NCBI GenBank assembly: GCA_044226625.1
Contig: JBGAGQ010000024.1
Span: forward strand, 1 to 64,000
DNA: 64,000 nt
Source: Thermoanaerobaculia bacterium
Lineage (GTDB): Bacteria; Acidobacteriota; Thermoanaerobaculia; Multivoradales; UBA5704
Direction of reading: 5' to 3'
In this document: positions 17,979 through 36,683 of the stretch, piece by piece
Position numbering within the stretch: position 1 is the stretch's first letter
Layout: each line of letters begins with the position of its first letter
Notes under the pieces: model-generated
The model's input: the letters and a program-made list of their open reading frames with translations, nothing else
What the model was told of the DNA's origin: nothing
The model's database searches: none
Made by a program: the position numbers and the translations under genes

Positions 17979-17982
17979 GCCG

Positions 17983-19189: not shown

Positions 19190-19262
19190 TTAGCCGTTTT
19201 TTGCGAGCCGTTCCTCGCGGCCCGTTTGAAGGACCCGCCCCCGGGCGGAACGAGTTCTTTGT

Positions 19263-19347
<85 letters not shown>

Positions 19348-19378
19348 TCTCCTTCCCCTCAGCTCCCCCGATCCGGTC

Positions 19379-20197: not shown

Positions 20198-20263
20198 CGG
20201 CTAGAGCCTCCACCGCCGATTCTATCCGCCCGACGGAAGGTACGTTCGGAGAGTCCCTTCCAT

Positions 20264-20293
20264 CTCAGGGCCGCTCAGGGCCGCTCAGGCCCG
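20264..20293. repeat. 3 x 10-bp tandem repeat over the permease stop codon
   Basis: ctcagggccg ctcagggccg ctcaggcccg. Confidence 0.7.
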
Positions 20294-21580
20294 GCGCAGC
20301 CAGCGCGCGAGCTCACCGAACGTCGGCTTCTTGCCGTACATCAAGATCCCCACGCGGTAGATCCGCGCCGTCGTCCAGACCATCAGGAAGACGAAGCCGG
20401 CCGTGAGCACTTCGGCGAGCAGCACCTGCCAGAGCGGGGGCATGCGGATCGCCAGCCGGAGCGTCATCAGGAGCGGAGTGAAGATAGGGACGAGCGAAAG
20501 GACCACCGCGAGCGTCGAATCCGGATCGTTGATCACCTTCGGGGCGAGGAACATGGGCACCGCGAGCAGGAGGATCAGGGGTGCCGCCGTTTGCTGGGCC
20601 TCCTGCAGATTGTTGAAGGCGGCGCCGAGGGCCGCATAGAAGCTCGAGAACAGGAAGAAGCCGAGCACGAAGAACGCGATCAGATGGATCGCGGTTCCAA
20701 CCCCGATCGAGGGGAGCGTGACGTCTTTCGGAAGGTAGGCAAGGGCCATCGCGACGCCGGGTGAGGTGACCACCGCGGCGGTGACCACCCAGATCGCGAA
20801 CTGGGTCAAGCCCACGGAACCGATGCCGAGCAGCTTACCGAGCATCAAATCGAACGGCTTCACCGCCGAAAGCAGGACCTCGACGACACGGTTCCCCTTC
20901 TCGTCGAGGATGCCGGTCATCACCTGCTGTCCCCAGACCTGGATCGCGATGAACAGCATCATGAAGACGACGTAAGCGAGCGCGGCGCCGGCGAGCCCGA
21001 TCTCGCGCTTGGAGCCCTCCTCCGACACGCGGACGGTGTCGAGCTCTACGCCGCGCATCAGATCCTCCGCTCGCGCCGGATCGAGCCCCGCCTCGGCCAG
21101 GCGAAGGCGTTGAAAGGCGCGGGAGAGCCGTCGCTCCACCCGCGATTGAGTGACGAACCCGGAGGTGCTGCGCGCCCGGTAGGTCACCTTCCCGGTACGG
21201 AGGGACGCGTCGTCGATCAGGATCCAGGCGGCGATCTCATGATCGAGGACCCGCCGGTCGAGCTGCTTTTCCTGCTCGGCCCGGTCCGATCGCGGCGCCT
21301 CGAGGACGAGCTCTATCTCGGACTTTCGCTCGGTGCCTTCGGCCGGATCGGCCGCCGTCTCGTCGGACGCTTTGCGTTGGAGCTCCGGCCGAATCTTGGC
21401 CGTACGGTCGAGGACGACCATTCGCTCTTTGTCGGAAGACATCGAGAGGAGGAGCGAAGGAAGGACCGTCGCGGCGAGGACGAAAAGCGGCAGACCGAGG
21501 GTCGAAAACCAGAAAGCCTTGCCCTTGACCCGCAGGAGATACTCCCGCTTGGCGACCGAAAGGGTGTGGTCAAGCCTCAT
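20285..21580 (-). CDS. ABC-2 type transporter permease (NatB/YhaP-like)
   Basis: VAKREYL, EKGNRVVEVLLS, GKLLG, IYRVGILMYG. Confidence 0.9.
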   Translation of the reverse strand: MRLDHTLSVAKREYLLRVKGKAFWFSTLGLPLFVLAATVLPSLLLSMSSDKERMVVLDRTAKIRPELQRKASDETAADPAEGTERKSEIELVLEAPRSDRAEQEKQLDRRVLDHEIAAWILIDDASLRTGKVTYRARSTSGFVTQSRVERRLSRAFQRLRLAEAGLDPARAEDLMRGVELDTVRVSEEGSKREIGLAGAALAYVVFMMLFIAIQVWGQQVMTGILDEKGNRVVEVLLSAVKPFDLMLGKLLGIGSVGLTQFAIWVVTAAVVTSPGVAMALAYLPKDVTLPSIGVGTAIHLIAFFVLGFFLFSSFYAALGAAFNNLQEAQQTAAPLILLLAVPMFLAPKVINDPDSTLAVVLSLVPIFTPLLMTLRLAIRMPPLWQVLLAEVLTAGFVFLMVWTTARIYRVGILMYGKKPTFGELARWLRRA

Positions 21581-22472
21581 CGCGAACCACCTCGAGAAAG
21601 ATCTGCTCGAGCGCAGGCTCTTCGGAACGGAAGTCCGAGACGCGCAGGAATTCAACGGCACGGGCGAGCACTTGGGAACCCTCTACGCCCGAAGCGAGAC
21701 CGAAGCGTGCGGTGCTGGCCGTGATGGCCACGTCCTCGACCCCGGCGATTTCCCGGAGGCGCGAGAGATCGCCCTCGGCGGTGAGCCGGAAGGAGCGGCC
21801 CGCGTGCCGCGCCTTCACCTCCGCGAGCTCGCCGGCCAAGACGACCCTCCCCTTGGAGATCAGGCAGATCCGGTCGCACATCCGCTCCGCGAGCTCCATC
21901 CCGTGGGTGGAAAGTACGACGGTCCGCCCGCCGTCCCGAAGCTCGGTCAGAAGCTCGCGGAAGAGCTCCTGATTGAGCGGGTCGAGCCCGGAAAACGGCT
22001 CGTCGAGGATCAGGAGATCCGGCCGATGGAGGACCGTGCCGATGAGCTGGACCTTCTGCTGCATTCCCTTGGAAAGCTCCTCGATCCGTCGCTTGGCCCA
22101 GGCCCCGAGGCCCGCGCGCTCTAGCCACGGCTCGATCTCTTCGAGCGCCGCGCGCCGTTTGAGCCCGCGGATCTCCGCGAGGAAGAGGAGCTGGTCCAGC
22201 ACGGTCATCTTCCGATAGAGACCCCGCTCCTCCGGCAGGTAGCCGACCCGGTCGAGGTCCCCTTCCCGGCGAGATCGGCCGAACATTCGTATCTCGCCGG
22301 AATCGGGCGCCAAGATGTCGAGGATCATCCGGATCGTCGTCGTCTTCCCGGCGCCGTTCGGACCGAGCAAGCCGAAGATCGACCCCGCCGGGACTTCGAA
22401 GCTCACGCCCGCGACGGCCTGATGTCCTTCATAGCTCTTGCGGACGTCGAGCAACTCGAGAATTTCGGTCAT
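21570..22472 (-). CDS. ABC transporter ATP-binding protein
   Basis: GPNGAGKTT, LSKGMQQ, ILDEPFSGLDP. Confidence 0.95.
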   Translation of the reverse strand: MTEILELLDVRKSYEGHQAVAGVSFEVPAGSIFGLLGPNGAGKTTTIRMILDILAPDSGEIRMFGRSRREGDLDRVGYLPEERGLYRKMTVLDQLLFLAEIRGLKRRAALEEIEPWLERAGLGAWAKRRIEELSKGMQQKVQLIGTVLHRPDLLILDEPFSGLDPLNQELFRELLTELRDGGRTVVLSTHGMELAERMCDRICLISKGRVVLAGELAEVKARHAGRSFRLTAEGDLSRLREIAGVEDVAITASTARFGLASGVEGSQVLARAVEFLRVSDFRSEEPALEQIFLEVVRDEA

Positions 22473-22484
22473 GTTGCCTCAAGG

Positions 22485-22564
22485 TACGAAACTTTTCAGC
22501 CGGAGTTCAGCGACGGAGCCACATCATAGTCCCGCGCTGAAACAACCGGCCGACTGGTGGCGTA
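22485..22564. promoter_or_regulatory. Candidate divergent ECF-sigma promoters
   Basis: Plus strand TGAAAC-N17-CGTA (22538-22564); minus strand TGAACT-N15-CGTA (22509-22485). Confidence 0.4.
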
Positions 22565-22593
22565 GAGGCGGATTGATGCTGGAGGAGAATGCC

Positions 22594-23265
22594 ATGAACG
22601 ACAGCCTGTCCTTTCGCGAGACGCCTCTCGGCCTATTCCTCACCGCGCCGTTTCGCGCTCGGTCGTACTCCAACCTGCTCTATCTCGCCCTCGCCTTCCC
22701 GCTCGGGCTCGTCTACTTCGTCTTTCTGGCCATCGGCCTGTCGGTCGGTTTGGGCCTGACGATCATCTGGATCGGCCTGCCGATCCTCGCCGCGGTGATG
22801 TTGGGCAGCTTCGGTCTGAGCCTCTTCGAGCGCCAGCTCGCGATCCATCTGCTGGGTGCGAAAGTCCCGCCGATGAGCTCCGCGGCGCCGCCTCCGGCCG
22901 GCTTTTGGGCTCGGGTGCGGGAGTTCCTTGCGAACCCGGCGACCTGGAAGGGGATGACCTACCTCGCGATCAAGTTCCCGCTCGGGCTCGCCACGTTCGT
23001 GGCCTTCGTGACCCTGGGGTCGATCACGCTCGCGTTCCTGCTCGCTCCGCTCTATTACGGCTGGCTGCCCGGACCCATGTTCGACCTGGGAGCCTACTCT
23101 TGGAGCGTCGAGACCTTTGGAGACGCCCTTCTCTGCTCGGCGGTCGGAGCGCTACTCGGTCTGGTGTCTCTCAACGTGTTCAACGGCGTCGCCTTCGCTT
23201 GGCGCGAGCTTTCCGCCGCGATGCTCGGCAGCTCGAGGTTCTCTGGCGCGGCCGCCGGCGCCTGA
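22594..23265 (+). CDS. Stand-alone membrane 'putative sensor' domain protein (PF13796-like)
   Basis: GGAGGAG RBS; YLALAFPLG, IWIGLPIL, ERQLA, ATWKGMTYLAIKFPLG. Confidence 0.78.
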   Translation: MNDSLSFRETPLGLFLTAPFRARSYSNLLYLALAFPLGLVYFVFLAIGLSVGLGLTIIWIGLPILAAVMLGSFGLSLFERQLAIHLLGAKVPPMSSAAPPPAGFWARVREFLANPATWKGMTYLAIKFPLGLATFVAFVTLGSITLAFLLAPLYYGWLPGPMFDLGAYSWSVETFGDALLCSAVGALLGLVSLNVFNGVAFAWRELSAAMLGSSRFSGAAAGA

Positions 23266-23471
23266 TCGTTGAATGGGCCGTCCGGCGCGGACGGCCCCTT
23301 GCCTTCTTCTCATCCTCTCGACAGTTCGAGACGAACGTCCGACCGGATCGCGCCGATCCCTCCCGGGATCGACCCGCCTTAATCGCGAAAAACCTTTTGC
23401 TGGAAGGGCTTTACAGACCGCTTGATCTGTGTGTGATACCCTTCGACGGGTTCTGCTCCAAGTGAAAATCC

Positions 23472-23497
23472 CTCCGTTTGCCAATGAGCAAACGGAG
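23472..23497. promoter_or_regulatory. Perfect 10-bp inverted repeat upstream of the giant surface protein
   Basis: ctccgtttgc-caatga-gcaaacggag. Confidence 0.5.
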
Positions 23498-23565
23498 ATA
23501 GCTGTGCTGGCGGGAGTGAGGATCTTCAAACGGCAGCTCCTCCGACCGTCCGCGAGGGCCCTTCG

Positions 23566-26500
23566 ATGACCGCCAAGAGATTTCCCCAGCTCCTCGCGTT
23601 CGCGGTGGCGAGCCTGTTTGCTCTCCGACCGGCGGCGGCAGTGACGTCCACGTTCAAGATCTATATCGACGCGGGCAACGACAACGCGGCGACCAGCTGT
23701 ACCGATCCCTCCGTACCTTTCCGTTTCGACGAGGTGCTGACCACGACGGTCGACACGAGCGGAGCGGCATCGGCCTCCGTCACCGCGGTCGCCCACCAGT
23801 CGTGTCTCTCCGGCACGCTCGATCCCACGCCGCACGCGGTGCCCGGGCCGCCCACGCCGCCCTGGAACGTCGGCATCGGCAACGGCGACAACGCGACCAA
23901 CGTCATCGAAACGTTCTTCAAGTTCACCGGCGCCGCCCCCACCTCCGTACGGTTCGCGCTGGTCGCGACCGGCGCGAGCGGCGGGCTGGACATCGTCACG
24001 ACCACCGCTTCGGGAAGCCCGACGCCGATCGTGCTGGTGCTCGGTCCGGTCATCGACATCCCCACCCTGGGCGGCTGGGGCCTCGCCCTCCTCGGATTGC
24101 TCCTCGCGCTCGCGGCCGGAAAGACGCTGCGTCGGCGCGGCGCGCGGGTCGCGCTCGCGATCCTGTTCCTCTCGTCTGCGGGCGCGCTTTGGGCGGTTTG
24201 TCTTTTCGACGGCCTGACCAACGACTGGTCGGTCGGCCAGCGGGTCGCGCAGGACAACGCCGGAGATTCAGCGGGTGGTCCCGACGTGCGCTCGTTCTAC
24301 GCCAAGTTCGAGAACGGAAGCCTCTGCTTCCGAATCGACAGCTCGCTCATCTTCAACGATCCGCCGACCGCCGATGACCAGGCCCCCTCGACCGCCGAGG
24401 ACACGGCCCTGCCGTTGACCTTGACGGGAAGCGATCCGAACGGCGACCCGCTCACCTTCTCGATCGTCTCCGGCCCCGCCCATGGCACTCTCGGCCCGTT
24501 GTCCGGCGCGACCGCGACGAGCGTGAACGTCTCTTACACACCGGCCGCCGATTTCAACGGTTCCGACAGCTTCGTGTTCCAGGTCGCCGATGGTCTGGGA
24601 GGGACCGACCAGGGAACGGTGTCGATCACGGTCACCCCGGTCGACGACACTCCGATCGCGGTCAACGACGCGGCGACGGTCGCCGAGGACTCGGGCGCCA
24701 CGGCGGTCCCTGTCCTGGCCAACGACACGGACGTCGACGCCGGACCGATCGGCATCGCGTCGGTGACGCAGCCGGCGAACGGCACCGTGGTCATAACGGG
24801 CGGCGGCACGGGTCTGACCTACGCGCCGAACGCGAACTACTGCAATCAGCCTCCCGGCACGACGCTCGACACCTTTACCTACACCTTGACGCCGGGTAGC
24901 TCGTCAGCGACGGTGACGATGACGGTGACCTGCGTCGACGACGCGCCGGTCGCGGTGGCCGACGCGGCGACCGTCGCCGAGGACTCCGGCGCAAGCGCGG
25001 TCGACGTGCTCACGAACGACACAGACATCGACGCGGGTCCGAAGACCGTCGCCTCGGTGACGCAGCCTACGAACGGCTCGGTGGTGATCACCGGCGGCGG
25101 TACGGGTCTTACCTACGCCCCGAACGCGAACTACTGCAACCAGCCGCCGGGTACGACGCTCGACACCTTTACTTACACCTTGGCGCCTGGCGGGTCCTCC
25201 GCAACAGTCACGATGACGGTGACCTGCGTGGACGACGCACCGGTCGCGGTGGCCGACGCGGCGACCGTCGCCGAGGACTCGGGCGCCACCGCGGTCTCCG
25301 TCCTCGCCAACGACACGGACGTCGACGCGGGTCCCATCAGCATTGCGTCGGTAACGCAGCCTGCGAACGGCGCGGTGGTGATCACGGGCGGCGGAACGGG
25401 GCTGACTTACGCGCCGAACGCGAACTACTGCAACCAGCCGCCGGGCACGACGCTCGACACCTTCACCTACACCCTGACGCCCGGCAGCTCTTCGACGACG
25501 GTGACGATGACCGTGACCTGCGTCGACGACAACCCCGTCGCGGTTGCGGACGCAGCGACGGTGCTCGAGGATTCGGGCGCGAACGCGATCGCCGTGTTGG
25601 CGAACGACACCGACATCGACGCGGGCCCGAAGAGCGTCGCCTCGGTGACTCAGCCGGTCAACGGCGCGGTGGTGATCACGGGCGGCGGCACGGGCCTCAC
25701 TTACGCGCCGAGCGCGAACTACTGCAACAACCCGCCCGGGACGACGCTCGACACCTTCACCTATACCCTGGCACCGGGCGGTAGCTCGACGACGGTGACG
25801 ATGACCGTGACGTGCGTGGACGACGCTCCCGTCGCCGTAGCGGACGCCGCGACGGTGAACGAAGACTCCGGCGCCAATGCGATCAACGTCCTGGCCAACG
25901 ATCCGGACCTCGACGGCGGACCCAAGGTGGTGGGCTCGGTCACGCAGCCGGCCAACGGTGCGGTCGTGATCACGGGCGGCGGCACGGGCCTCACCTATGC
26001 GCCGAACGCCGACTACTGCAACCAGCCGCCGGGCACGACGCTGGACACCTTCACTTACACCTTGAGCCCCGGGGGATCGTCGGCCACCGTCACGGTGACC
26101 GTGAGCTGTCTGAACGACGCTCCGGCCGTGGACCTGGACGCGAACGACGACCAGGGGACCACGGGCTCCGATTTTGCGGCCACCTACACCGAAGGCACCG
26201 CCGCGACGCTCATCGAGGATCCGACCGACGCGACGGTGACCGACATCGACAACACCACGTTGGCTTCGATGACGGTGACCCTCACGAACCTTCTCGACAC
26301 CGGTTTCGAGACGCTCTCGACGGATACGACGGGGACCTCGATCGTCGCCGTCTATACGCTCGCTCCCGGCACCGGAACTCTCACGCTGACGGGGCCCGAC
26401 ACGATCGCCAACTTCCGAACCGTGCTCCGCAAGGTGCGGTATCTAAACACCGACATCGACCCTGATGCCTCGGCCCCGCGGGTCGTCAACTTCGTCGCGA

Positions 26501-29500
26501 ACGACGGCGCCGTCAACAGCAACACGGCGGTCTCGACGGTCACTGTGGTCGCGGTGGACTCGCCGCCCACGGCGGTGGCCGACGCCGCGACGGTAACCGA
26601 AGATTCGGGCGCGAACGCGGTGAACGTGTTGGCGAACGACACGGATCCCGACAATGGGCCGAAGAGCGTCGCCTCGGTGACGCAGCCGGCGAACGGCACG
26701 GTGGTCATCACGGGCGGCGGAACGGGGCTGACTTACGCGCCGAACGCGAACTATTGCAACCAGCCGCCGGGCACGACGCTCGACACCTTCACCTACACCC
26801 TGACGCCTGGCAGCTCTTCGACTACGGTGACCATGACGGTGACCTGCGCCGACGACAATCCGGTCGCGGTGGCCGACGCGGCGACCGTGAACGAGGACTC
26901 GGGCGCGAACGCGGTGAACGTTCTTGCGAACGACACCGACCCTGACGGCGGTCCGAAGAGCGTCGCGTCGGTGACGCAGCCGGCGAACGGCGCGGTGGTG
27001 ATCACGGGCGGCGGCACGGGACTGACCTACGCCCCGAACGCGAACTACTGCAACCAACCGCCGGGCACGACGCTCGACACCTTCACCTATACGCTTTCGC
27101 CGGGCGGCAGCTCGACGACGGTGACGATGACGGTCACTTGCGTCGACGACAACCCGGTGGCGGTGGCCGACGCGGCGACCGTGGTCGAGGACTCGGGCGC
27201 GAACGCGGTCAACGTGTTGGCCAACGACACGGACGTCGACGGCGGTCCGAAGAGCCTGGCGTCGGTGACGCAGCCAGCGAACGGTACGGTGGTGATCACG
27301 GGCGGCGGCACGGGCCTCACCTACGCTCCGAACGCGAACTACTGCAACCAGCCGCCGGGCACGACGCTCGACACCTTCACCTATACGCTCACGCCGGGTG
27401 GCAGCACGACGACGGTGACGATGACGGTCACCTGCGTCGACGACGATCCGGTGGCGGTGGCCGATGCGGCAACCGTGAACGAAGACTCGGGCGCCAACGC
27501 GGTCAACGTGCTGGCGAACGACACCGACATCGACGGCGGTCCGAAGAGCGTCGCGTCGGTGACGCAGCCGGCGAACGGCACCGTGGTGATCACGGGCGGC
27601 GGTACGGGTCTGACCTACGCCCCGAACGCGAACTACTGCAACCAACCGCCGGGCACGACGCTCGACACCTTCACCTACACGCTCACGCCGGGCGGCAGCT
27701 CGACGACGGTGACGATGACGGTCACCTGCGTCGACGACAACCCCGTCGCGGTGGCCGACGCGGCGACTGTGGTCGAGGACTCGGGCGCCAACGCGGTGAA
27801 CGTTCTGGCGAACGACACGGACGTCGACGGCGGCCCGAAGAGCGTCGCGTCGGTGACGCAGCCGGCGAACGGCACGGTGGTGATCACGGGCGGCGGCACG
27901 GGGCTGACCTATTCCCCGAACGCGAACTATTGCAACCAACCGCCGGGCACGACGCTCGACACCTTCACCTATACCCTCACGCCGGGCAGCAGCTCGACGA
28001 CGGTGACGATGACGGTCACCTGCGTCGATGACGATCCGGTGGCGGTGGCCGACGCGGCGACCGTGGTCGAGGACTCGGGCGCCAACGCGGTGAACGTATT
28101 GGCGAACGACACGGACGTCGACGCCGGCCCGAAGAGCGTCACCTCGGTAACGCAGCCGGCGAACGGCACCGTGGTGATCACGGGCGGCGGCACGGGTCTG
28201 ACCTACGCGCCGAATCCGAACTACTGCAACAACCCGCCAGGCACGACGCTCGACACCTTTACCTACGCGCTCACGCCGGGTGGCTCGTCCACCACGGTGA
28301 CGATGACCGTTACCTGTGTCGACGATCCTCCGGTCGCGGTCGCCGACTCCGCCACCGTGATCGAGGACTCGGGGGCCAATGCGATCAACGTGCTGGCGAA
28401 CGACACCGACATCGACGGAGGCCCGAAGAGCGTCGCCTCGGTGACGCAGCCCGCCAACGGTGTGGTGGTGATCACGGGCGGCGGAACGGGCCTGACCTAC
28501 GCGCCGAACGCGAACTACTGCAACAACCCGCCGGGTACGACGCTCAGCACCTTCACGTACACCCTGACGCCGGGAGGCTCGTCGACCACGGTGACGATCA
28601 CCGTAACCTGCGTCAACGATCCTCCCGTCGCCGGGGCCGATGCGGCCGACTTCATCGGCAACACGGAGCTTCGGGTGGATACCGGTGCGGTCGCGACCCC
28701 GCACGTGCTCAAGACCACGTCGAGCACGTTCGGCGTCCTCGACAACGACAGCGACCCGGTCGAGGGCGACGCGGTGGCGGTTTCCTCGATCACGGTCGGG
28801 GCCTGCACCGACAATTCCTCGCCGTTCGATTGCACCGACGCGGCCGTGGGCACGGTCCACATGCAGACGAACGGCCGCTTCAGCTTCGAGCCGGCGCCGG
28901 GCGACACCGGCGCAACGGAGTCCTTCACCTATGTGGTGACCGACAACGGCTCGCCCGCTCCGGCGAGCGCGACCGGCACGGTGACCCTGACTCGCTTCAA
29001 TCGCGTCTGGTACGTGAAGAACGATCAGGCTGCCGGTGGTCTCGGCCGGTCGGCCGATCCGTTCGACACCTTGCTCGAGGCACAGACCAACTCGGTCGCG
29101 GGCGACACGATCTACGTCTACAACGGCGACGGTACGACCACCGGCCAGGCGAACGGCATCGTCCTCAAGGCGACCCAGCGCTTGATCGGTGAGGGTGTGC
29201 AGCTCGCCGTGCCGGTCACCGTCAATGGAGGACCGAATCCGACCGTGCTGCGTGCCGCGGGCACAGCTCCGATGGTCGACGATGTCGACGCGGGCGGGAA
29301 CGCGGTCGGAGCGACCGACGTGATCCCCACCGAGATCGCCGGGTTGAACCTGGCGGGCAACACGAACGGAATCGACATCACTCACACTGGGGCTTTCGCC
29401 GGTTCGGGATCGCTGGAGATTCGCAACAACGTGATCCGCTCCGCCGGTGTCGAGGGAATCGATCTCAACAAGGGCGGCACCGGGGCGCTCACCCTCTCCC

Positions 29501-31758
29501 TGCATGACAACACGGTGACCGCGACGAGCAACGGCATCGACGTCCTCCGTAGCAACGGGGGCCTCACCATCACCGCGTTCGCCAACAACGTCGTGACGGG
29601 AAACACCGGAGGCTCGGGAATCGTCGTCACCGGTCCGATGTCGTTCGACTCGAATACCGCGAACGCCGTCAACGACCTGGTCTCGGGTGGCACGACCGTC
29701 ATCGGCGCTTCGGGCAACGGCGTCGGGGCGAGCGGGATGGTTCTAACCAACGTCGACGGCAACTTGGAATTCACCGACCTGGACGTCTTCAACGACGCCG
29801 GTACCGGCCTCTCCGTCACCGGATCCGGCGCGTTGACCGCCTCGACCGGCACGCGGATCGCCGTTTCCGCCGGGGTTTCTACCCTCGACTCCAGCGGTGG
29901 CCCCGCGGTCTCCATCAACAACGCCACGACGAGCCTGCCGATCAACTTCTACCGGTCGCAGAACTCCCCGACGACCGGCCTGAGCTTGGTCAATGCCTTC
30001 GGCGGCGTGGGTTCCACCGCGTTCTCCGCGAGCACCGGACAGATTTCGGATCCGGTCGGTGCGTCGGGAACCGCGGTCAACGTCAGCGGCGGCAACGGCA
30101 ACGTCACGATCGGGATCCCGGTGACGAACACCTCCGGCAACTCGGTCGTCGTGACCAACCGCTCGAGCGACACGGTCAGCTTCACCGGAACGGTGAGCGA
30201 CAACGGCGGCTCCGGTATCTCGCTGACCACCAATACCGGGGCGACGATCGGCTTCTCCGGCGCGATCACGGCGAGCACCGGCGCCAACCCGGCGTTCACC
30301 GCGACCGGGGGCGGAACGGTAACGGCCACGGACACGACCAGCACGCTCACGACCACGACCGCGACCGCGCTGAACGTCGCCAACACGATGATCGGCGCCG
30401 GCGGTCTCAGGTTCCGGTCGATCACGGCCGGAACCGCGGGGAGCGGCCCGGCGAACGGCATCGTGCTCAATACGACGGGAGCGAGCGGCGGGCTCACGGT
30501 CTCCGGAACCGGCGGCGCCGGAACCGGCGGCACGATCCAGAAGACGACCGGACCGGGCGTGCTGTTGATGTCCACCCAGAACGTCAGCCTGAGCTCTCTC
30601 AACGTGATCAACGGTACCGACGACGGAATTCACGGCGAATCGGTAACCAACCTCGACCTGATCGGCTGCAGCATCACCGGCAACGGAAACTCCACCACCG
30701 ACGACGGCATCCAGTTGGGTCTCGAGAGCGGAGCGACCACCGGTGTCTCCGGTACCTTGAACCTGACGAACACCACCGTCAGCTCCTCGGCCCACAACAA
30801 CGTGCATATCCGCAACACGCTCGGTACGTTGACGATGAACGTGACGGGGGGAGCTTTCAACAACATCAGCGACACGACCGGCGCCAACTCGTTCCTCTAC
30901 GAGGCCTCCGGCACGTCGACCACCACGGCGGCGACGATCAGCGGCGCGACCTTCAGCACGAACTCGCCGCAGCGAGGTCTCGAGGTCCAGGCGCACGACA
31001 CGGCGACGATCACCGACTTCACGGTGTCGGGTAACACCTTCACCGATAACGGCATCCACGCGAGCTTCACGCAGGACACGAGCGCCAACCTCACGTTCAA
31101 GATGCTCAACAACTTGAACATGTTGACGGCGACGCCGCTCCACGCGATCAACGTCTTCTCCTCTTCGACGTCGACCGGCGGAACGATCCGCGGCCGGATC
31201 CAGGGCAACACCATCGGGAACGGCGCGGTTTCCGGGTCCGGTTCGTCGTCGGGCAACGGAGTCCGCGTCCTGATCCAAGGTCGCACCGCCGCCACGCTGC
31301 TGATCGACGGCAACGTGATTCGACAGACGCCGGGCGGCCGGGCCGTGGACATGCAGTTCCTCGGCTCGACGACCACGGGTCTGGGTATCGTCTCGACGAA
31401 CGACGTGACGATCACCAACAACGACGTTCAGAACAACGCGCCGGCGGCCTCTTTCCCGCTCGCGGCGATCTTCCTCGCTTCCGACAACCAGGGAAGCCCG
31501 GCCCGTGTCCGTGCCGACATCCGCACGAACACCGTGCCGGCAACGGTCGGACCCAACGGCTCGTTCGACTATCCGACCTTCGACGGCAACGCGGCCTGGT
31601 TCGTCTACGAGGAGCTCGGAGGGGCGACGTCCGAGCTCGTGGACAACGCGCCCGCCAGCGGAACCGCCACAGCCGAGATGCAAAGCCACAACACCGGAAC
31701 CATGTATGCCAACTCGGGGGTGGCCCTGATCGCAGGACCGATCACCACGCCGCCGTAG
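23566..31758 (+). CDS. 2730-aa secreted surface protein: signal peptide, internal IPTL-CTERM-like motif, Ig/cadherin-like tandem repeats, C-terminal beta-helix-like region
   Basis: Uninterrupted ORF; ND.PVA..D..T..ED Ig repeats; G/T/N/S-rich parallel beta-helix-type C-terminal ~900 aa. Confidence 0.9.
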   Translation: MTAKRFPQLLAFAVASLFALRPAAAVTSTFKIYIDAGNDNAATSCTDPSVPFRFDEVLTTTVDTSGAASASVTAVAHQSCLSGTLDPTPHAVPGPPTPPWNVGIGNGDNATNVIETFFKFTGAAPTSVRFALVATGASGGLDIVTTTASGSPTPIVLVLGPVIDIPTLGGWGLALLGLLLALAAGKTLRRRGARVALAILFLSSAGALWAVCLFDGLTNDWSVGQRVAQDNAGDSAGGPDVRSFYAKFENGSLCFRIDSSLIFNDPPTADDQAPSTAEDTALPLTLTGSDPNGDPLTFSIVSGPAHGTLGPLSGATATSVNVSYTPAADFNGSDSFVFQVADGLGGTDQGTVSITVTPVDDTPIAVNDAATVAEDSGATAVPVLANDTDVDAGPIGIASVTQPANGTVVITGGGTGLTYAPNANYCNQPPGTTLDTFTYTLTPGSSSATVTMTVTCVDDAPVAVADAATVAEDSGASAVDVLTNDTDIDAGPKTVASVTQPTNGSVVITGGGTGLTYAPNANYCNQPPGTTLDTFTYTLAPGGSSATVTMTVTCVDDAPVAVADAATVAEDSGATAVSVLANDTDVDAGPISIASVTQPANGAVVITGGGTGLTYAPNANYCNQPPGTTLDTFTYTLTPGSSSTTVTMTVTCVDDNPVAVADAATVLEDSGANAIAVLANDTDIDAGPKSVASVTQPVNGAVVITGGGTGLTYAPSANYCNNPPGTTLDTFTYTLAPGGSSTTVTMTVTCVDDAPVAVADAATVNEDSGANAINVLANDPDLDGGPKVVGSVTQPANGAVVITGGGTGLTYAPNADYCNQPPGTTLDTFTYTLSPGGSSATVTVTVSCLNDAPAVDLDANDDQGTTGSDFAATYTEGTAATLIEDPTDATVTDIDNTTLASMTVTLTNLLDTGFETLSTDTTGTSIVAVYTLAPGTGTLTLTGPDTIANFRTVLRKVRYLNTDIDPDASAPRVVNFVANDGAVNSNTAVSTVTVVAVDSPPTAVADAATVTEDSGANAVNVLANDTDPDNGPKSVASVTQPANGTVVITGGGTGLTYAPNANYCNQPPGTTLDTFTYTLTPGSSSTTVTMTVTCADDNPVAVADAATVNEDSGANAVNVLANDTDPDGGPKSVASVTQPANGAVVITGGGTGLTYAPNANYCNQPPGTTLDTFTYTLSPGGSSTTVTMTVTCVDDNPVAVADAATVVEDSGANAVNVLANDTDVDGGPKSLASVTQPANGTVVITGGGTGLTYAPNANYCNQPPGTTLDTFTYTLTPGGSTTTVTMTVTCVDDDPVAVADAATVNEDSGANAVNVLANDTDIDGGPKSVASVTQPANGTVVITGGGTGLTYAPNANYCNQPPGTTLDTFTYTLTPGGSSTTVTMTVTCVDDNPVAVADAATVVEDSGANAVNVLANDTDVDGGPKSVASVTQPANGTVVITGGGTGLTYSPNANYCNQPPGTTLDTFTYTLTPGSSSTTVTMTVTCVDDDPVAVADAATVVEDSGANAVNVLANDTDVDAGPKSVTSVTQPANGTVVITGGGTGLTYAPNPNYCNNPPGTTLDTFTYALTPGGSSTTVTMTVTCVDDPPVAVADSATVIEDSGANAINVLANDTDIDGGPKSVASVTQPANGVVVITGGGTGLTYAPNANYCNNPPGTTLSTFTYTLTPGGSSTTVTITVTCVNDPPVAGADAADFIGNTELRVDTGAVATPHVLKTTSSTFGVLDNDSDPVEGDAVAVSSITVGACTDNSSPFDCTDAAVGTVHMQTNGRFSFEPAPGDTGATESFTYVVTDNGSPAPASATGTVTLTRFNRVWYVKNDQAAGGLGRSADPFDTLLEAQTNSVAGDTIYVYNGDGTTTGQANGIVLKATQRLIGEGVQLAVPVTVNGGPNPTVLRAAGTAPMVDDVDAGGNAVGATDVIPTEIAGLNLAGNTNGIDITHTGAFAGSGSLEIRNNVIRSAGVEGIDLNKGGTGALTLSLHDNTVTATSNGIDVLRSNGGLTITAFANNVVTGNTGGSGIVVTGPMSFDSNTANAVNDLVSGGTTVIGASGNGVGASGMVLTNVDGNLEFTDLDVFNDAGTGLSVTGSGALTASTGTRIAVSAGVSTLDSSGGPAVSINNATTSLPINFYRSQNSPTTGLSLVNAFGGVGSTAFSASTGQISDPVGASGTAVNVSGGNGNVTIGIPVTNTSGNSVVVTNRSSDTVSFTGTVSDNGGSGISLTTNTGATIGFSGAITASTGANPAFTATGGGTVTATDTTSTLTTTTATALNVANTMIGAGGLRFRSITAGTAGSGPANGIVLNTTGASGGLTVSGTGGAGTGGTIQKTTGPGVLLMSTQNVSLSSLNVINGTDDGIHGESVTNLDLIGCSITGNGNSTTDDGIQLGLESGATTGVSGTLNLTNTTVSSSAHNNVHIRNTLGTLTMNVTGGAFNNISDTTGANSFLYEASGTSTTTAATISGATFSTNSPQRGLEVQAHDTATITDFTVSGNTFTDNGIHASFTQDTSANLTFKMLNNLNMLTATPLHAINVFSSSTSTGGTIRGRIQGNTIGNGAVSGSGSSSGNGVRVLIQGRTAATLLIDGNVIRQTPGGRAVDMQFLGSTTTGLGIVSTNDVTITNNDVQNNAPAASFPLAAIFLASDNQGSPARVRADIRTNTVPATVGPNGSFDYPTFDGNAAWFVYEELGGATSELVDNAPASGTATAEMQSHNTGTMYANSGVALIAGPITTPP
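24643..28614 (+). repeat. Twelve 294-bp (98-aa) intragenic repeats in blocks of 5 (24643-26112) and 7 (26557-28614)
   Basis: Exact 294-nt period; consensus DD.PVAVADAATV.EDSGANAVNVLANDTD...YCNQPPGTTLDTFTYTLTPG.SSTTVTMTVTCV. Confidence 0.95.
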
Positions 31759-31822
31759 CGATTCGCGTTGTTTCGCGGGACGGGGAGTCCGGGCCCGGAA
31801 GTGCTAACTAGAGGAGGTATTC

Positions 31823-32326
31823 ATGGCAGAACCTTTTTTGAGCGAGATCAGGATCATGAGCTTCGTGTTCGCGCCGAAGGGGTGGGCTCTCTGTAATGGG
31901 CAACTTCTGCCCATCAATCAGAACCAGGCTCTGTTCTCCCTTCTGGGAACGACGTTCGGGGGCGACGGCCGGGTCAACTTCGCCTTGCCCGACCTTCGCG
32001 CACGTACGCCGATCCACGTCGGCAGCGGACACACGCTCGGCGACCGTGGCGGTGAGCAGGCTCACACGTTGAGCATTGCGGAGCTTCCGACCCACACCCA
32101 TGTGATGAATGCCACCTCGAACGACGCCACTCAGCCGATTCCAACGGCGAATCTGCTGAGTCGCGAGGCACCGGCAAACCCCTACATCTCGCCCACCAAC
32201 CTGAGCGCGATGATCGCCGGGACCGTGGCGAACACCGGAGGCTCACAGGCTCACTTGAACATGCAGCCCTTCCTGACCCTGTCCTTTTGCATAGCCCTTC
32301 AGGGCATTTTCCCGAGCGCTACCTAG
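31823..32326 (+). CDS. Phage tail-collar domain protein (microcystin-dependent protein-like) 1
   Basis: EIRIMSFVFAPKGWALCNGQLL..LFSLLGTTFGGDG..FALPDLR; H.NMQPFL. Confidence 0.92.
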   Translation: MAEPFLSEIRIMSFVFAPKGWALCNGQLLPINQNQALFSLLGTTFGGDGRVNFALPDLRARTPIHVGSGHTLGDRGGEQAHTLSIAELPTHTHVMNATSNDATQPIPTANLLSREAPANPYISPTNLSAMIAGTVANTGGSQAHLNMQPFLTLSFCIALQGIFPSAT

Positions 32327-32335
32327 GAGGCTGGA

Positions 32336-32839
32336 ATGGCGCAACCCTACGTCGGAGAGATTCGAATGTTCGCCGGGAATTTCGCCCCGGCGGGTTGGAT
32401 GTTTTGCGAGGGCCAGCTCCTACCGATCTCCGAATACGAGACCCTCTTCAACTTGATCGGGACCACCTATGGTGGCGACGGCCAGAGCACCTTCGCGCTG
32501 CCCGATTCGCGCGGCCGAATTCCCGTTCACCAAGGAGGAGGCTTCGTCCTGGCGGAAACCGGTGGTGCCGAGGAGATCACGCTCACAGTCAACCAGATCG
32601 CCGCTCACAGTCACCCCCTTCTCTGTGCGAACGTCGTGGGAAACGATCCCAACCCGGCCACCCGGGTGCTCGCCGAGTCGTCGGCGGCGACGCTGTACCA
32701 ATCGGGCGCACCCGCCGCCGCGATGGCTCCTCAGTCGATCGGGTCGACCGGCGGAAGTCAGCCCCACACGAATTTCCAGCCCTATCTTTGTGTCAACTTC
32801 ATCATCTCGCTCTTCGGGATCTTCCCGTCTCCCACCTAG
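32336..32839 (+). CDS. Phage tail-collar domain protein 2
   Basis: GEIRMFAGNFAPAGWMFCEGQLL..GTTYGGDGQSTFALPD. Confidence 0.92.
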   Translation: MAQPYVGEIRMFAGNFAPAGWMFCEGQLLPISEYETLFNLIGTTYGGDGQSTFALPDSRGRIPVHQGGGFVLAETGGAEEITLTVNQIAAHSHPLLCANVVGNDPNPATRVLAESSAATLYQSGAPAAAMAPQSIGSTGGSQPHTNFQPYLCVNFIISLFGIFPSPT

Positions 32840-32854
32840 AAAGGGACCAGAACG

Positions 32855-33376
32855 ATGGATCCATTTGTCGCTGAGATTCGGATCTTTCCCTTCAACTTCG
32901 CGCCCCGAGGGTGGGCGTGGTGCGATGGTCAGTTGCTGCCCCTTTCACAGAACACCGCACTGTTCTCCCTGCTGGGCACGACGTACGGCGGAAACGGGAA
33001 AAGCAATTTCGCCCTTCCCGATCTACAGGGTCGCGCGCCGATGCATCCCGGCCAAGGCCCCGGCCTGTCACTACACGATCTGGGTGAAACCGGTGGCTCC
33101 GAGACCGTCTCCCTGCTCGAGAGCGAGATTCCGTCCCATAGCCATGCCCTCATGTCCCTCGGAGCACCGGGGAACCGCACGAGCCCGGTCAACAACTCCA
33201 TCGCGCGTCCGGCCGCCGGAAACGCCTTCGTTCCTCCCGCGGGTGCGCCGTTGGTCGCGATGGCCGATCAAAGTCTCCCGCCCGCCGGCGGCGACCAGCC
33301 GCATAACAACATGCAGCCGTACCTGACGTTCTATTTCAACATCGCCCTTCAGGGCGTGTTCCCACCGCGCACTTGA
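32855..33376 (+). CDS. Phage tail-collar domain protein 3
   Basis: AEIRIFPFNFAPRGWAWCDGQLL..FALPDLQGR; HNNMQPYL. Confidence 0.92.
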   Translation: MDPFVAEIRIFPFNFAPRGWAWCDGQLLPLSQNTALFSLLGTTYGGNGKSNFALPDLQGRAPMHPGQGPGLSLHDLGETGGSETVSLLESEIPSHSHALMSLGAPGNRTSPVNNSIARPAAGNAFVPPAGAPLVAMADQSLPPAGGDQPHNNMQPYLTFYFNIALQGVFPPRT

Positions 33377-33399
33377 AGCCCCTCTAGGCTTCTGCAGTA

Positions 33400-33434
33400 G
33401 GGCGTGCTCCTCCTTCGGGAGGAGCCGTTCGCCC
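33400..33434 (+). terminator. Strong hairpin after the collar genes (UUCG tetraloop, no U tract)
   Basis: gggcg..gctcctcc-ttcg-ggaggagc..cgccc. Confidence 0.55.
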
Positions 33435-33585
33435 GCTCTCTACTTCGCTCGATCCCACATCTGCGGGCGCCCTAAAGTATTGATTCCGTGTGCGTTCCCC
33501 GCCCGGGTGTGCTAGCGTGACCGAGCTGCTGAACCTGTTGCTCTAGCTTGGGTCTCCAATCCGCCCGAATTTAGCGAGGCGCGCC

Positions 33586-34347
33586 ATGCGTTCGATCACT
33601 TCCGTGAAGTCGTCGTCCCCTTCCTGGAGCCGCCGCGAGTTTCTCGGCATTTCGTCGGTCGGCGTGCTCGCCGCCTCCTTTCCCGGGATCGCCCGAGCGC
33701 AGACCGCGCGGCAGGGGAAAGCACAAGCCCTCTCGATGGGCTACATCGAAGGGAGCGAGACGCTGAGGAGCCTCAAGCGCCTTCCTCGGGCGCTTCGGCG
33801 GCCAGGCCTCGAAGCGGACGCCGAGACCGGTCTTCGGATCGTGCGCGCCGACTCTATTTGGGCGGGCGACGGAGAGCTCTACGGTCGACCGTTGCGGGTC
33901 GCCATTCGAGGTCTCTATCCGCCAGGTATGGCGGAAACCAAGCAGCGGGACCAGTTGCCGCGGAGCGTGCACGTCGACGCCGTGTTCCCCTCCTTCGATC
34001 CGATCGACGATCGGCCGAATCGGTTCGCGGCTTGGAGCTTCGAACAAGTGGGCGGGTGGAGCCCGAGCCCGCCGATTCGCTTCGCCTTTACCCACGAAGA
34101 CGAAAATCCCCTGGCGCTGGTTCTCGACGTCGTAGACGCGGCGGGTGTTCCGGCGAGCTATGAGACTCGATTCACCATCGACCGGGAGACAGGACTGCCC
34201 CGCCTACGGCGCGGCCTTTATCTCTTGGGCCTGTCTGCGGAAACGTGGGCTTTCGATGCGAGCCTTCCGGCGCTCGTCGGACCACGAGCCGCGATACGCT
34301 ATGCCTCGATCCTGATGTCGATCGAGCTCGCGCCCGAAGCAGTGTAG
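33586..34347 (+). CDS. Hypothetical protein with twin-arginine (TAT) signal
   Basis: SRREFLG followed by a hydrophobic stretch and an ARA cleavage site. Confidence 0.75.
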   Translation: MRSITSVKSSSPSWSRREFLGISSVGVLAASFPGIARAQTARQGKAQALSMGYIEGSETLRSLKRLPRALRRPGLEADAETGLRIVRADSIWAGDGELYGRPLRVAIRGLYPPGMAETKQRDQLPRSVHVDAVFPSFDPIDDRPNRFAAWSFEQVGGWSPSPPIRFAFTHEDENPLALVLDVVDAAGVPASYETRFTIDRETGLPRLRRGLYLLGLSAETWAFDASLPALVGPRAAIRYASILMSIELAPEAV

Positions 34348-34370
34348 TCCGCGCCGAGCGGAAAGGCCGG

Positions 34371-34865
34371 ATGGTCTCCGATCTCGAATTGCGTCCCGCC
34401 ACCGAGCAGGACCGTGACTTTCTCCTTCGGCTCTACGCGAGCACCCGCGAAGAGGAGCTCTCGGTCGTCGATTGGCCCCCCGAGCAGAAACGGGCCTTTC
34501 TGGCGATGCAGTTCCAAGCCCAGGACGTGCATTACCGGGAGCACTACCCTGGTGCCGAGCTCCTCGTCATCTTGCGCGCGGGGATCGAGGCCGGCCGTTT
34601 CTACGTCTTTCGAACCGCCCAAGAAATCCGCCTCATGGACATCGCTCTGCTACCCGAACACCGGAACTTCGGAATTGCCACCGAGTTGATCGGTCGTCTT
34701 TTTGCCGAGGGCACGGCGACCGGCCGGATCGTGAGCGTCCACGTCGAGCAGTTCAATCCGGCGTTGCGGCTGTACGAGCGCCTCGGATTCGAGCGGAGCG
34801 CCGAGCGCGGTGCCTATTTCCTGATGGTCTGGAGACCCGCGGCCGCCGCCGCGACCGTCAGGTAA
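34371..34865 (+). CDS. GNAT-family N-acetyltransferase
   Basis: LRPATEQD, DIALLPEHRNFGIAT, NPALRLYERLGF. Confidence 0.9.
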   Translation: MVSDLELRPATEQDRDFLLRLYASTREEELSVVDWPPEQKRAFLAMQFQAQDVHYREHYPGAELLVILRAGIEAGRFYVFRTAQEIRLMDIALLPEHRNFGIATELIGRLFAEGTATGRIVSVHVEQFNPALRLYERLGFERSAERGAYFLMVWRPAAAAATVR

Positions 34866-35148
34866 ATATGACCTCGTAGCGGAAGACGCCCCGATCCGGA
34901 CCCAGAGGAACCGCGAACATCTCCAGCGGCCCGATCTCGGGCTGCTCGAAGCGATAAATGCTCTGAGGAAGGACCGGCGCTTCGAGCGGTGCGTGGAAAA
35001 TCAGCGAGAACGCTTGCCGCGAACCCGAGTCGCCGAGCGGAGTCACCGTGTTCAGCCGAGTATCGACTGTCATCCCGTCCGCCACGACGATGCGGAATGG
35101 CGAATCCTTCAGCCGTTCGAACGAGTCGATCCTAAGGTCTTCGAGCAT
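34858..35148 (-). CDS. DUF6916-like small protein
   Basis: RQAFSLIF..P, LPQSIY, MFAVPLG, YEVIF; GGAGGAGG RBS; convergent 8-bp overlap with the GNAT gene. Confidence 0.75.
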   Translation of the reverse strand: MLEDLRIDSFERLKDSPFRIVVADGMTVDTRLNTVTPLGDSGSRQAFSLIFHAPLEAPVLPQSIYRFEQPEIGPLEMFAVPLGPDRGVFRYEVIFT

Positions 35149-35371
35149 TGTGCCTCCTCCGGAACCCGAATCTTATAGGGAACGACGGCCTTCGGATCCC
35201 CCGAGGGGACGGCGTGTCGGGGAAGCGGCTCGCAACGCGCGTTCGCGCACGTTCCGAGCTGCGATAGATTGCCCAGGCGAACATCGACCGCTTCGGGACG
35301 ACTCGATCCCCGGCATTTCTCCCGGCCGGGATCTGTAACCGCCGCTTGGCCCGCGGCATAGGAGGAGTGGA

Positions 35372-35950
35372 TTGGAAGCCGCCGAAAGTTCGGCCGACGA
35401 ACTATCCGCGCTGATGGTCCGCTACCAGGCGGGAGATGGACGGGCGTTCGACGAGATCTACCGTGCTCTCTCACCGATCCTCCGGAGGTATCTCATTTCC
35501 CTGACCCGAAATGCCGTGGTCGCGGACGATCTGCTGCAGGAGACGTTCCTTCAGTTGCACCGCGCCCGCCACACTTATCGGCCCGACCGCCCGGTGCGGC
35601 CTTGGGCGTTTGCGATCGCGCGCCACGCCTTCCTGATGGACCGCCGGACGAAAGCGCGAAAGGGCTTCGACCTGTTTCCGGAGGGTGAGGCACCGGATCT
35701 GCCGGTACCTCCGGAGGTCGAAGGGCTCGCCGACCGGCAAGCGCTCGCCCGAGCCCTGCGGGGCGTGCCCGAAGACCGACGGGAAGCGCTGGTGCTGCAT
35801 CACGTGGTCGGTCTCTCGTTCCAAGAGATCGGGGCGACGCTTGGAATTCGAGGCGGTGCAGCCAAGCTCCGTGCGCATCGCGGCATGGTGAAATTGCGAG
35901 AGTTGCTCCTCGGAGCGGGACGCAAAGACGAGGCAGAGTCATCTGTATGA
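35372..35950 (+). CDS. ECF RNA polymerase sigma factor
   Basis: GDGRAFDEIY, DDLLQETFL, WAFAIARH, region-4 HTH; GTAACC at 35335 is a possible -35 element. Confidence 0.92.
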   Translation: MEAAESSADELSALMVRYQAGDGRAFDEIYRALSPILRRYLISLTRNAVVADDLLQETFLQLHRARHTYRPDRPVRPWAFAIARHAFLMDRRTKARKGFDLFPEGEAPDLPVPPEVEGLADRQALARALRGVPEDRREALVLHHVVGLSFQEIGATLGIRGGAAKLRAHRGMVKLRELLLGAGRKDEAESSV

Positions 35951-36639
35951 GAGAAGCCAAGGAATACGGCGCGGAGCCGCCGGAGAGCTTACGCGCGGCG
36001 ATCTACGCCGACCTGAAGCCCGTCACGCCCGTCGCGCCCTCCTATCGCCGCGCGATCCTGCTCGTTCCGTGGACCCTGATCGCGCTCGCCATTTTCTGGA
36101 GCCGATTCGGTTTTCGTCCCGACATGCCGGTGCTCGGGTTCGTCCTGGCCTGGGGCCTCTCCGCCGCTCAACTGCTCCTGGCGCTCTGGGTTGCCGTAGG
36201 GGCAATCCGAGGGACGATTCCAGGGGATGGATTGCCGAACTCGATTCTTTGGACAGGAGCCTTCGGAGCCTTCGGCCTGCATCTGGCGGGACTGGCGCTT
36301 GCGTTTCGGCAGAGCCCGTTCCCTGCGCCGCCGGCCAAGGTGACCGCCGAGCTGCATGCCTGTTTCTACTATGAGCTCCTGATCGCCACTCCCCTGCTCG
36401 TGATCGGTGTTTGGCTCCTAGCGCGCGGTTTCGCGTTCCGGCCGGCAATCGGCGGCGCCCTTGCCGGACTCGCCGCCGGATTGCTGGCTGACTCGACCTG
36501 GCGGTTGATCTGCCCCTTCTCCTTTCCCAGTCATGTATTGCCGGCACACACGGGACCGATCCTCACCATGTCGATTCTCGGCGCGGGGCTCGGCCTGGCG
36601 GTCGAGCGCCTCCGCCGCGGAGGCAATCGCAGGATCTAA
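35947..36639 (+). CDS. NrsF/DUF1109-like membrane anti-sigma factor
   Basis: ATGA overlap with the sigma gene, about 6 TM helices, conserved Cys and CP....H...H. Confidence 0.78.
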   Translation: MREAKEYGAEPPESLRAAIYADLKPVTPVAPSYRRAILLVPWTLIALAIFWSRFGFRPDMPVLGFVLAWGLSAAQLLLALWVAVGAIRGTIPGDGLPNSILWTGAFGAFGLHLAGLALAFRQSPFPAPPAKVTAELHACFYYELLIATPLLVIGVWLLARGFAFRPAIGGALAGLAAGLLADSTWRLICPFSFPSHVLPAHTGPILTMSILGAGLGLAVERLRRGGNRRI

Positions 36640-36683
36640 ACCCGTTTCCCGACTCCCAAGTCAGCGAGTACAGCGGGTACGAT

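Follow-up and report, generated by a model that had tools for sequence, protein, structure and literature searches.

The stretch analysed here, positions 23566-35148 of a 64,000-nucleotide window of DNA from a Thermoanaerobaculia bacterium (GenBank assembly GCA_044226625.1, contig JBGAGQ010000024.1; "the window" hereafter denotes all 64,000 nucleotides), contains seven genes arranged around three consecutive genes for phage-type tail-collar proteins, named colA, colB and colC. The gene for a giant exported repeat protein of 2730 amino acids (aa) stands first (23566-31758, plus strand). It is followed after 64 nucleotides (nt) by colA (31823-32326, plus; 167 aa), after a further 9 nt by colB (32336-32839, plus; 167 aa), and after another 15 nt by colC (32855-33376, plus; 173 aa), each encoding a protein of the Pfam family Collar (PF07484; E 1.4e-26, 3.2e-29 and 2.1e-27, respectively). 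Downstream lie the genes for a protein with a twin-arginine translocation (Tat) signal, whose family is referred to as TATfam (33586-34347, plus; 253 aa; an SRREFL motif followed by a hydrophobic stretch, and no Pfam family), for a GNAT acetyltransferase (34371-34865, plus; 164 aa; Pfam Acetyltransf_7, Acetyltransf_1 and Acetyltransf_3) and for a DUF6916 protein without a signal sequence (34858-35148, minus; 96 aa; PF21880, E 8.6e-23). The open reading frame (ORF) of the GNAT opens at 34245, and its true start was placed at 34371 by the starts of its orthologues. The DUF6916 gene is convergent with the GNAT gene, the last 8 nt of which it overlaps. Gene calls and Pfam searches agree with the initial annotation of this DNA, in which a triplet of collar genes of about 170 aa each behind the 2730-aa protein, followed by a Tat protein, a GNAT and a convergent DUF6916 gene, had been described. 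Together these genes form a cassette that is a widespread, non-viral and apparently unstudied bacterial gene set, and the window holds one local copy of it.

Collar proteins and conservation of the cassette

The Collar scores of colA, colB and colC (92.6, 101.1 and 95.3 bits against a cut-off of 24) place all three in the family. They are the genome's only Collar matches, and its single DUF6916 match lies in this stretch as well. Each of the three proteins opens directly with the collar domain's first strand (MAEPFLSEIR, MAQPYVGEIR and MDPFVAEIR); these N-termini are nearly constant across phyla, that of colC as M(A)DPFVAEIR, and are of low hydrophobicity (maximum Kyte-Doolittle value 0.86-1.35, by our own measure). 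Searches of PDB sequences matched colB to a long tail fibre (8kec, 2.4e-7) and to T4 gp12 (1ocy, 1e-4); matches to 1pdi and 5iv5 were also found among the collars, and colC gave an additional weak match to the Pfam family Gp10_C (E 0.0027). An HxH motif is constant in 58 of 58 sequences of each paralogue, at aa 91-93 (H91/H93) in colA and colB and at aa 95-97 (H95/H97) in colC. In each paralogue, column conservation was found to be 0.80-0.99 at both chain ends, as against 0.33-0.59 over approximately residues 100-140, and this variable segment sits between the HxH motif and a conserved GG(S/D)Q.H motif. Conserved ends around a variable middle are the pattern that would be expected for a fixed scaffold with a variable binding tip.

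The resemblance is to the receptor-binding tips of the T4 short and long tail fibres (gp12 and gp37) and to the C-terminal domain of gp10, as seen in the PDB sequence matches, the weak Gp10_C match and the family PF21939 precomputed on relatives. In gp12, an HxH motif binds a metal on the threefold axis, and the HxH motif of the collars is like this site. As in gp12/gp37-type tips, the collar domain is followed by a head domain containing HxH, whereas the N-terminal shaft leading to a baseplate or fibre is absent from all three proteins. The phage proteins are long chains that carry the module internally or C-terminally (PHROG matches cover 62-212 of 455 and 551-755 of 1024) and form homotrimers, while the cassette encodes three different stand-alone modules. 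Judged by homology, each collar protein is a stand-alone version of the T4 gp12/gp37-type collar plus head module.

Conservation within the order was assessed in 41 related genomes, of which 34 have DUF6916, mostly as a single copy, and 26 have exactly three Collar matches. Twenty loci on longer contigs were picked from the DUF6916 hits, and their neighbouring genes were sorted by homology clustering. The three collar genes are found in the same order in 18 of these loci, mostly separated by 8-15 nt; 19 loci have the GNAT and 12 the TATfam gene, and in 17 a relative of the giant's C-terminal region (approximately aa 1650-2650) stands next to colA (tblastn and clustering). Beyond these five families (giant, collars, Tat protein, GNAT and DUF6916), nothing was found to be conserved around the triplet in the order-level loci, and no secretion machinery was found there. 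Collar orthologues are 54-92% identical, compared with 42-56% between the paralogue families (for colA, 54-88% compared with 42-51% to colB and colC orthologues), and the triplication is therefore older than the order. On these alignments, the three collar genes are ancient paralogues, with the order A-B-C fixed.

A pattern scan using one genome per species returned at least 598 colB relatives, the best 80 loci of which were classified with profiles from the order-level alignments. Judged by their record titles, these loci belong to Acidobacteriota, Pseudomonadota, Chloroflexota, Verrucomicrobiota, Bacteroidota and Actinomycetota. The order A-B-C is found in 73 of the 80, a GNAT in 71 and DUF6916 in 68; relatives of the giant's C-terminal region occur in 40 (phmmer), and an adjacent ORF of at least 1000 aa in 54. 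There are three collar genes in 74 loci and six, as whole A-B-C sets, in 3, and the two loci with two collar genes are both truncated by the end of a contig. Together, the 20 order-level and 80 cross-phylum loci confirm that the triplet, GNAT and DUF6916 recur as neighbours beside very large proteins, as had been proposed. In 58-row cross-phylum alignments, the collars are 57-82% identical to those of the window, as against only 22-43% for DUF6916. The tree of the concatenated A, B and C sequences has 29 phylum changes (minimum 5, shuffled mean 32.9), and several of its well-supported clades mix phyla. This scrambling suggests that the cassette moves between phyla as a unit; within the limits of a weak test, such transfer is favoured over a phylogenetic signal erased by constraint.

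Independence from phages and contractile tails

No viral gene was found among the 50 scanned ORFs of the window. Pfam assigned only cellular families, such as Dus, RsgA, LepA, TsaD, GAPDH, PGK and SecG, to the 37 further window ORFs, and the rest of the 64-kb window is housekeeping DNA that includes transporters and glycosyltransferases. The locus had been called phage-free, which holds for the window, where no capsid, sheath, tube or baseplate gene is present, but not for the whole genome, since another contig (C53) carries a contractile injection system or tailocin-like locus at approximately 17500-36600. Its components include two sheath matches (34449-34940 and 36057-36554; family matches), a gp19-type tube (33524-33976; E 2.9e-34) and a baseplate J protein (17552-17980; family match).

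No Collar match was found on contig C53, so its contractile system has no collar-type fibre of its own, and with the sheath, tube and baseplate genes in the same genome it might be supposed that colA, colB and colC supply its tail fibres. This is very improbable. Thirty of the 41 related genomes have at least three Collar matches, and a PF04984 sheath match is missing from 8 of these (G009, G015, G026, G027, G032, G034, G035 and G040; completeness 89-100%, three of them in five or fewer contigs); the cassette is therefore independent of contractile systems. Sheath matches are also present in 5 of the 9 related genomes without a Collar match. Moreover, the collars have no shaft or baseplate-attachment region, beginning as they do at the collar domain, and the cassette keeps conserved partners of its own. 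The initial annotation had named an association of the collars with a contractile system encoded elsewhere as a finding that would refute its proposal; such a system does exist on C53, yet the sheath-less relatives separate the triplet from it.

A decayed prophage, or a random phage tail gene left behind, was also considered, because the Collar domain derives from phages and these proteins match PHROG tail families with E values down to 8.7e-29. This was rejected, and its probability is negligible: the genes of the window are cellular, with no other phage genes in its 64 kb, and the collar genes are intact and conserved in fixed order across the order and across phyla. In addition, the cellular orthologues are 57-82% identical, whereas the 621 matching phage records are all below 60% (best 41.7%) and the best collar match among 2.9 million viral contigs reaches 59%. 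In viral loci with collars, a single collar is the usual case (65 of 79); none of the viral contigs with three collar genes has DUF6916, and a GNAT is present in 2 of the 79 viral loci. Two IMG/VR contigs that are classed there as viral combine an A-B-C triplet with a cassette-type GNAT (L116:7451-9700 and L117:401-2840), and three others (L119-L121) have three consecutive collar genes of one type without GNAT or DUF6916, an arrangement resembling that of the virophage described below. No PHROG family matched DUF6916 or the Tat protein, and PADLOC models gave no match to the six small proteins at E <0.01. It is almost certain that the feature is this cassette and is not linked to a phage or contractile tail.

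Partner proteins, export signals and expression

The giant protein contains an N-terminal signal-like segment, 14 Big_9/Cadherin_4 repeats of the 'tandem-95' type (E 4e-175) and a C-terminal region of about 1000 aa that is common to cassette neighbours. The C-terminal region gave a Pfam Beta_helix match below threshold (23.1 bits against a cut-off of 25.9) and no useful match to PDB sequences. In a search of the N-terminal 265 aa, an IPTL-CTERM-like motif was detected at aa 165-190 (24058-24135, plus) by Pfam PF18203 (E 3.8e-6; 27.1 bits against a cut-off of 20.8) and by NCBIfam TIGR04174 (21.5 bits). It consists of IPTL, a hydrophobic helix and RRR, after which a second hydrophobic segment follows. 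The motif is internal to the 2730-aa chain and does not occupy the C-terminal position of an IPTL-CTERM sorting signal. The same in-frame architecture occurs in the giant of a congener (L113:3483-4382, minus), and among 184 long ORFs from six-frame translation of the loci, where many giants are cut at the end of the locus, an internal motif of this kind was found in the window's giant only. The N-terminus looks like a small sorted protein joined in frame to the giant. One locus (L038, from a record titled Chiayiivirga) has the architecture GIANT-A-B-C-GIANT-A-B-C-Tat protein-GNAT-DUF6916, in which the giant and the triplet are duplicated as a unit and the accessory genes are single, a hint that every triplet has a giant of its own as partner. 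In another (L014:7058-8563, plus), colC is followed by an additional protein of 501 aa, which bears a signal and is related to the giant's C-terminal region.

The DUF6916 protein scores 80.7 bits against a cut-off of 27 for PF21880 and was modelled by AlphaFold2 as a six-stranded barrel with a predicted local distance difference test (pLDDT) score of 93.3. VIA-align matched the model to MrkH (Z 8.9; root-mean-square deviation 2.2 over 82 residues), YcgR-N (Z 8.4; 2.6 over 86) and PP4397 (Z 8.2; 2.6 over 89), borderline values that lie near the tool's typical best for models without a true relative, and Foldseek returned nothing at E <=0.001 from the PDB or a viral library. The motif by which PilZ and YcgR proteins bind cyclic di-GMP is RxxxR; no invariant or nearly invariant Arg of such a motif was found among the conserved DUF6916 columns, in alignments of 20 and 58 sequences. 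The GNAT was assigned to its family by Acetyltransf_7 (34.6 bits, cut-off 27) and Acetyltransf_1 (33.3 bits, cut-off 20.7). Its nearest solved relatives are AAC(3)-I enzymes, at only E 5e-5, and no specific subfamily was found, the AAC(3)-I and RimI matches being far below their cut-offs.

The Tat protein has the properties of a Tat substrate, as predicted from its SRREFL motif, the RR of which is constant in 11 of 11 orthologues, from the hydrophobic stretch behind this motif and from the presence of TatC in the genome (E 8e-65). Its mature part was modelled as a beta-sandwich (AlphaFold2, pLDDT 77.9) of no clear known fold; VIA-align gave weak C2-like matches, all with Z <5, and Foldseek nothing at E <=0.001. 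In 25 of the 80 cross-phylum loci, a second DUF6916 copy carries a canonical SRRxFLK-type Tat signal upstream of the domain (background, 78 of 2864 six-frame ORFs), and in 11 loci, 9 of them from Acidobacteriota by record title, the 250-aa Tat protein is found in its place. The two partners never occur together (0/80), and neither is present within 10 kb in 44 loci. According to hhalign, Tat-DUF6916 is homologous to the cytoplasmic DUF6916 copy (99.8%), whereas only the signal aligns between Tat-DUF6916 and the 250-aa Tat protein (37%). The 253-aa protein of the window was considered as a diverged DUF6916 and, on sequence, rejected as such, with an hhalign probability of 0.8% against the cytoplasmic DUF6916 profile and no DUF6916 found in the 11 members of its family by Pfam at E up to 1. 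A Tat-exported partner is thus a recurrent and interchangeable part of the cassette, not the bystander for which the Tat protein had been taken. No export signal was found in the collars, DUF6916 or the GNAT.

The intervals around the Tat gene vary between loci. Two loci without the Tat protein have a conserved, signal-less ORF of about 106-114 aa in the slot between colC and the GNAT (L017:10768-11112 and L023:11014-11334, both minus), which is possibly another interchangeable accessory gene. A 360-aa ORF of transposase-like appearance lies between colC and the Tat gene in L016 (6282-7364, plus), and a near-identical tandem repeat block lies between the Tat gene and the GNAT in L019 (9047-10218).

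Metatranscriptomes of three runs from one biofilm study contain short contigs, at least 99% identical to this DNA, which lie on the 3' end of the giant gene, on all three collar genes and on the DNA upstream of the Tat gene. The giant/colA junction is spanned by one contig (31721-32122) and colB/colC by another (32792-32958); parts of the stretch, for example most of 33750-35370, have no contig, and contigs of this kind cannot show absence. These data are a weak hint of expression and read-through and show neither the strand nor a single transcript. Co-transcription of the collars with the giant, which the initial annotation required, gains weak support from one contig at each of the two junctions. 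A scan of 22000-36800 for promoters and terminators gave a number of sites not above that of shuffled sequence. Directly adjoining the DUF6916 gene are an extracytoplasmic function (ECF) sigma factor and an NrsF-type anti-sigma protein (35372-36639), after which come two Sortilin/BNR proteins of about 1050 aa (36684-44109). This neighbourhood is retained only within the genus (L028, L030 and L032), and these genes are probably outside the cassette, although the sigma/anti-sigma pair could be a local regulator of it. Just upstream of the giant, at 20285-23265, lie two minus-strand genes for an ABC-2 exporter, a permease and a DrrA-like ATPase, together with a gene for a membrane protein of the PF13796 'putative sensor' family, none of which is kept beside the cassette in other loci.

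Assembly, location and significance

How are the three collar proteins assembled? One chain each of colA, colB and colC probably combines in a 1:1:1 mixed trimer. This assembly is favoured because of the fixed gene order, the ancient paralogy, the copy number of three or six, the presence of HxH in every paralogue, the existence of single chains with three modules, and a virophage precedent. The single chains were found among the 120 best longer colA relatives of 1227 hits, which are sister forms of 40-60% identity. Exactly three collar modules are present in 79 of the 120, two in 36 and four in one. Judged by our own heuristics, 64 of these 79 begin with a hydrophobic segment resembling a signal and 45 end in a PEP-CTERM-like motif, and Pfam PF07589 is precomputed on several of them. 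The precedent is the virophage DSLV2, of the Aquatic Virophage 1 lineage, of which three consecutive PF07484 proteins are reported to purify together as one heterotrimer (about 55 kDa) and to bind cells of Synechococcus (PMC12724248). Both systems have three consecutive, co-oriented PF07484 genes of similar size (about 19 kDa each in the virophage, according to the same text; 167, 167 and 173 aa here). They differ in that the virophage genes adjoin capsid genes, whereas no such virion part was found among the 50 window ORFs and the triplet here sits on a housekeeping chromosome with a GNAT, DUF6916, a Tat protein and the giant. The alternative is that colA, colB and colC form three separate homotrimers of different specificities, a small arsenal of knobs. 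T4 gp12 and the long tail fibre relatives matched in the PDB are deposited as homotrimers, and each paralogue has its own HxH and its own variable central segment. This alternative is nonetheless rather improbable, as the number of collar genes in complete loci is strictly three or whole sets of three and never one, two or five, the order is fixed in 73 of 80 loci, exactly three modules recur in 79 of the 120 best longer single-chain relatives, and the virophage triplet is described as co-purifying as a heterotrimer (PMC12724248). Of the initial proposal of a domesticated fibre-tip heterotrimer, which is partly supported, the mixed trimer may accordingly be kept as the best reading of gene order, copy number, HxH, fused relatives and virophage precedent; its further parts, a trimer that would cap or be displayed with the giant and putative maturation or chaperone roles for the GNAT and DUF6916, are weaker.

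As to location, it is somewhat likely that the knob formed by the mixed trimer acts outside the cytoplasm, a view favoured because of the exported three-module relatives and the recurrent Tat partner. The cassette might instead work inside the cell, with the collars, DUF6916 and the GNAT joined in the cytoplasm in a complex such as a sensor or modifier, to which the giant and the Tat protein would be linked by regulation only. The lack of export signals in these three kinds of protein, the 44 of 80 cassettes without a nearby Tat partner and the borderline resemblance of the DUF6916 fold to barrels of the YcgR-N/PilZN type, which occur in cytoplasmic signalling proteins (Z 8.2-8.9), would suit such a complex. 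It is disfavoured, and considered quite unlikely, by the export signals and PEP-CTERM-like ends of most of the fused three-module relatives, the Tat-exported DUF6916 paralogue in 25 of 80 loci, the extracellular receptor binding of all known relatives of the collar fold, and the absence of any match to a PADLOC defence family.

The overall explanation favoured here, which has about an even chance of being correct as a whole, is a mixed, metal-holding trimer with a glycan-binding tip that acts outside the cell with the giant, carriage by Tat being the proposed route. The HxH pairs would hold a metal on the trimer axis, by analogy with gp12, the variable segments would form a ligand-binding tip, most likely for a glycan, and the knob would act outside the cytoplasm together with the giant encoded just upstream. 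A physical link between the knob and the giant is possible, though we lean slightly against it. Proteins that use the Tat route are exported in the folded state and can take along partners that are bound to them and have no signal, as in the case of the hydrogenase small and large subunits. Since the collars are signal-less while the cassette repeatedly holds a Tat-exported partner, it is proposed, speculatively, that the knob would be assembled and metal-loaded in the cytoplasm and then carried out as a hitchhiker by the Tat partner, which in this lineage would be the 253-aa protein. The likeness to known hitchhikers lies in signal-less, probably metal-binding oligomers encoded beside a conserved twin-arginine partner in a genome with TatC; more than half of the cassettes differ in having no nearby Tat partner. 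Such hitchhiking is tentative and on balance unlikely. The signal-less DUF6916 barrel may, again speculatively, serve as a cytoplasmic adaptor or holder, and the GNAT would acetylate one of the cassette components. In its most complete and still less likely form, the cassette would be a self-contained cellular device derived from a captured phage receptor-binding tip, in which the knob, asymmetric and folded around a metal, would form in the cytoplasm, be held by DUF6916 and be handed over to a Tat adaptor, with which it would cross the membrane in the folded state. In most lineages this adaptor would be a paralogue of DUF6916, and here it would be the 253-aa protein, which is unrelated. Outside, it would dock on the conserved C-terminal region of the giant, and the outcome would be a non-viral, fibre-like organelle recognising glycans on other cells or surfaces.

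Several points weigh against this explanation. The fused relatives that support the mixed trimer are only sister forms at 40-60% identity, the best 120 of 1227 hits, and the calls of signal peptides and PEP-CTERM ends on them are simple heuristics. Carriage by Tat cannot be general, as 44 of 80 loci have no Tat partner within 10 kb, and the Sec-type signals of the three-module relatives indicate that the fold can form after unfolded export, which weakens the need for Tat. The giant has a Sec-type signal and the collars have none, which makes a meeting of the two harder to account for. A beta-helix in the giant's C-terminal region is tentative, being suggested by a sub-threshold Pfam match, and the RNA evidence consists of short contigs of one study, with possible carry-over of DNA. 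Assembly, metal binding, ligand, location and contact with the giant are all deduced indirectly.

What does the cassette add to the known cellular Collar proteins? Many of the collar relatives are named 'microcystin-dependent protein' in source databases. RhiB of Rhizobium, encoded in the rhiABC(D) operon, is described as carrying a Collar domain (PMC13133039), and with the COG4675 'microcystin-dependent protein' (MdpB) it represents cellular, non-phage Collar proteins without an assigned function, like those of the cassette. The rhi operon is described as having a single Collar protein, as controlled by quorum sensing and as located on symbiosis plasmids, and not as a set of A-B-C, GNAT and DUF6916. 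COG4675 proteins are listed in soil metaproteome tables (PMC5579227), and Solibacter paralogues are noted in another study as a family under positive selection (PMC3174227). In the literature searched, no paper was found for 'DUF6916', and only the virophage study was found for 'tail collar' with 'heterotrimer'.

COG4675 Collar proteins occur commonly in bacteria of soil and water, and no function has been assigned to them. In the cassette they have a defined context, which consists of an A-B-C set in fixed order with an acetyltransferase of its own, two small barrel proteins that would face opposite sides of the membrane, and a giant exported protein. By homology and gene context, the feature is a real, widespread cellular variant of the phage and virophage receptor-binding tip. 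The 57-82% identity of its collars over six phyla, in a tree that ignores taxonomy, means that distant bacteria have probably exchanged the cassette and that it is unusually strongly constrained. How a knob of phage origin without a signal exits the cell can be approached directly through the Tat partner, which is recurrent and interchangeable. If the mixed trimer is true, the cassette would provide a cellular, asymmetric receptor binder of the phage type, so far reported only for a virophage.

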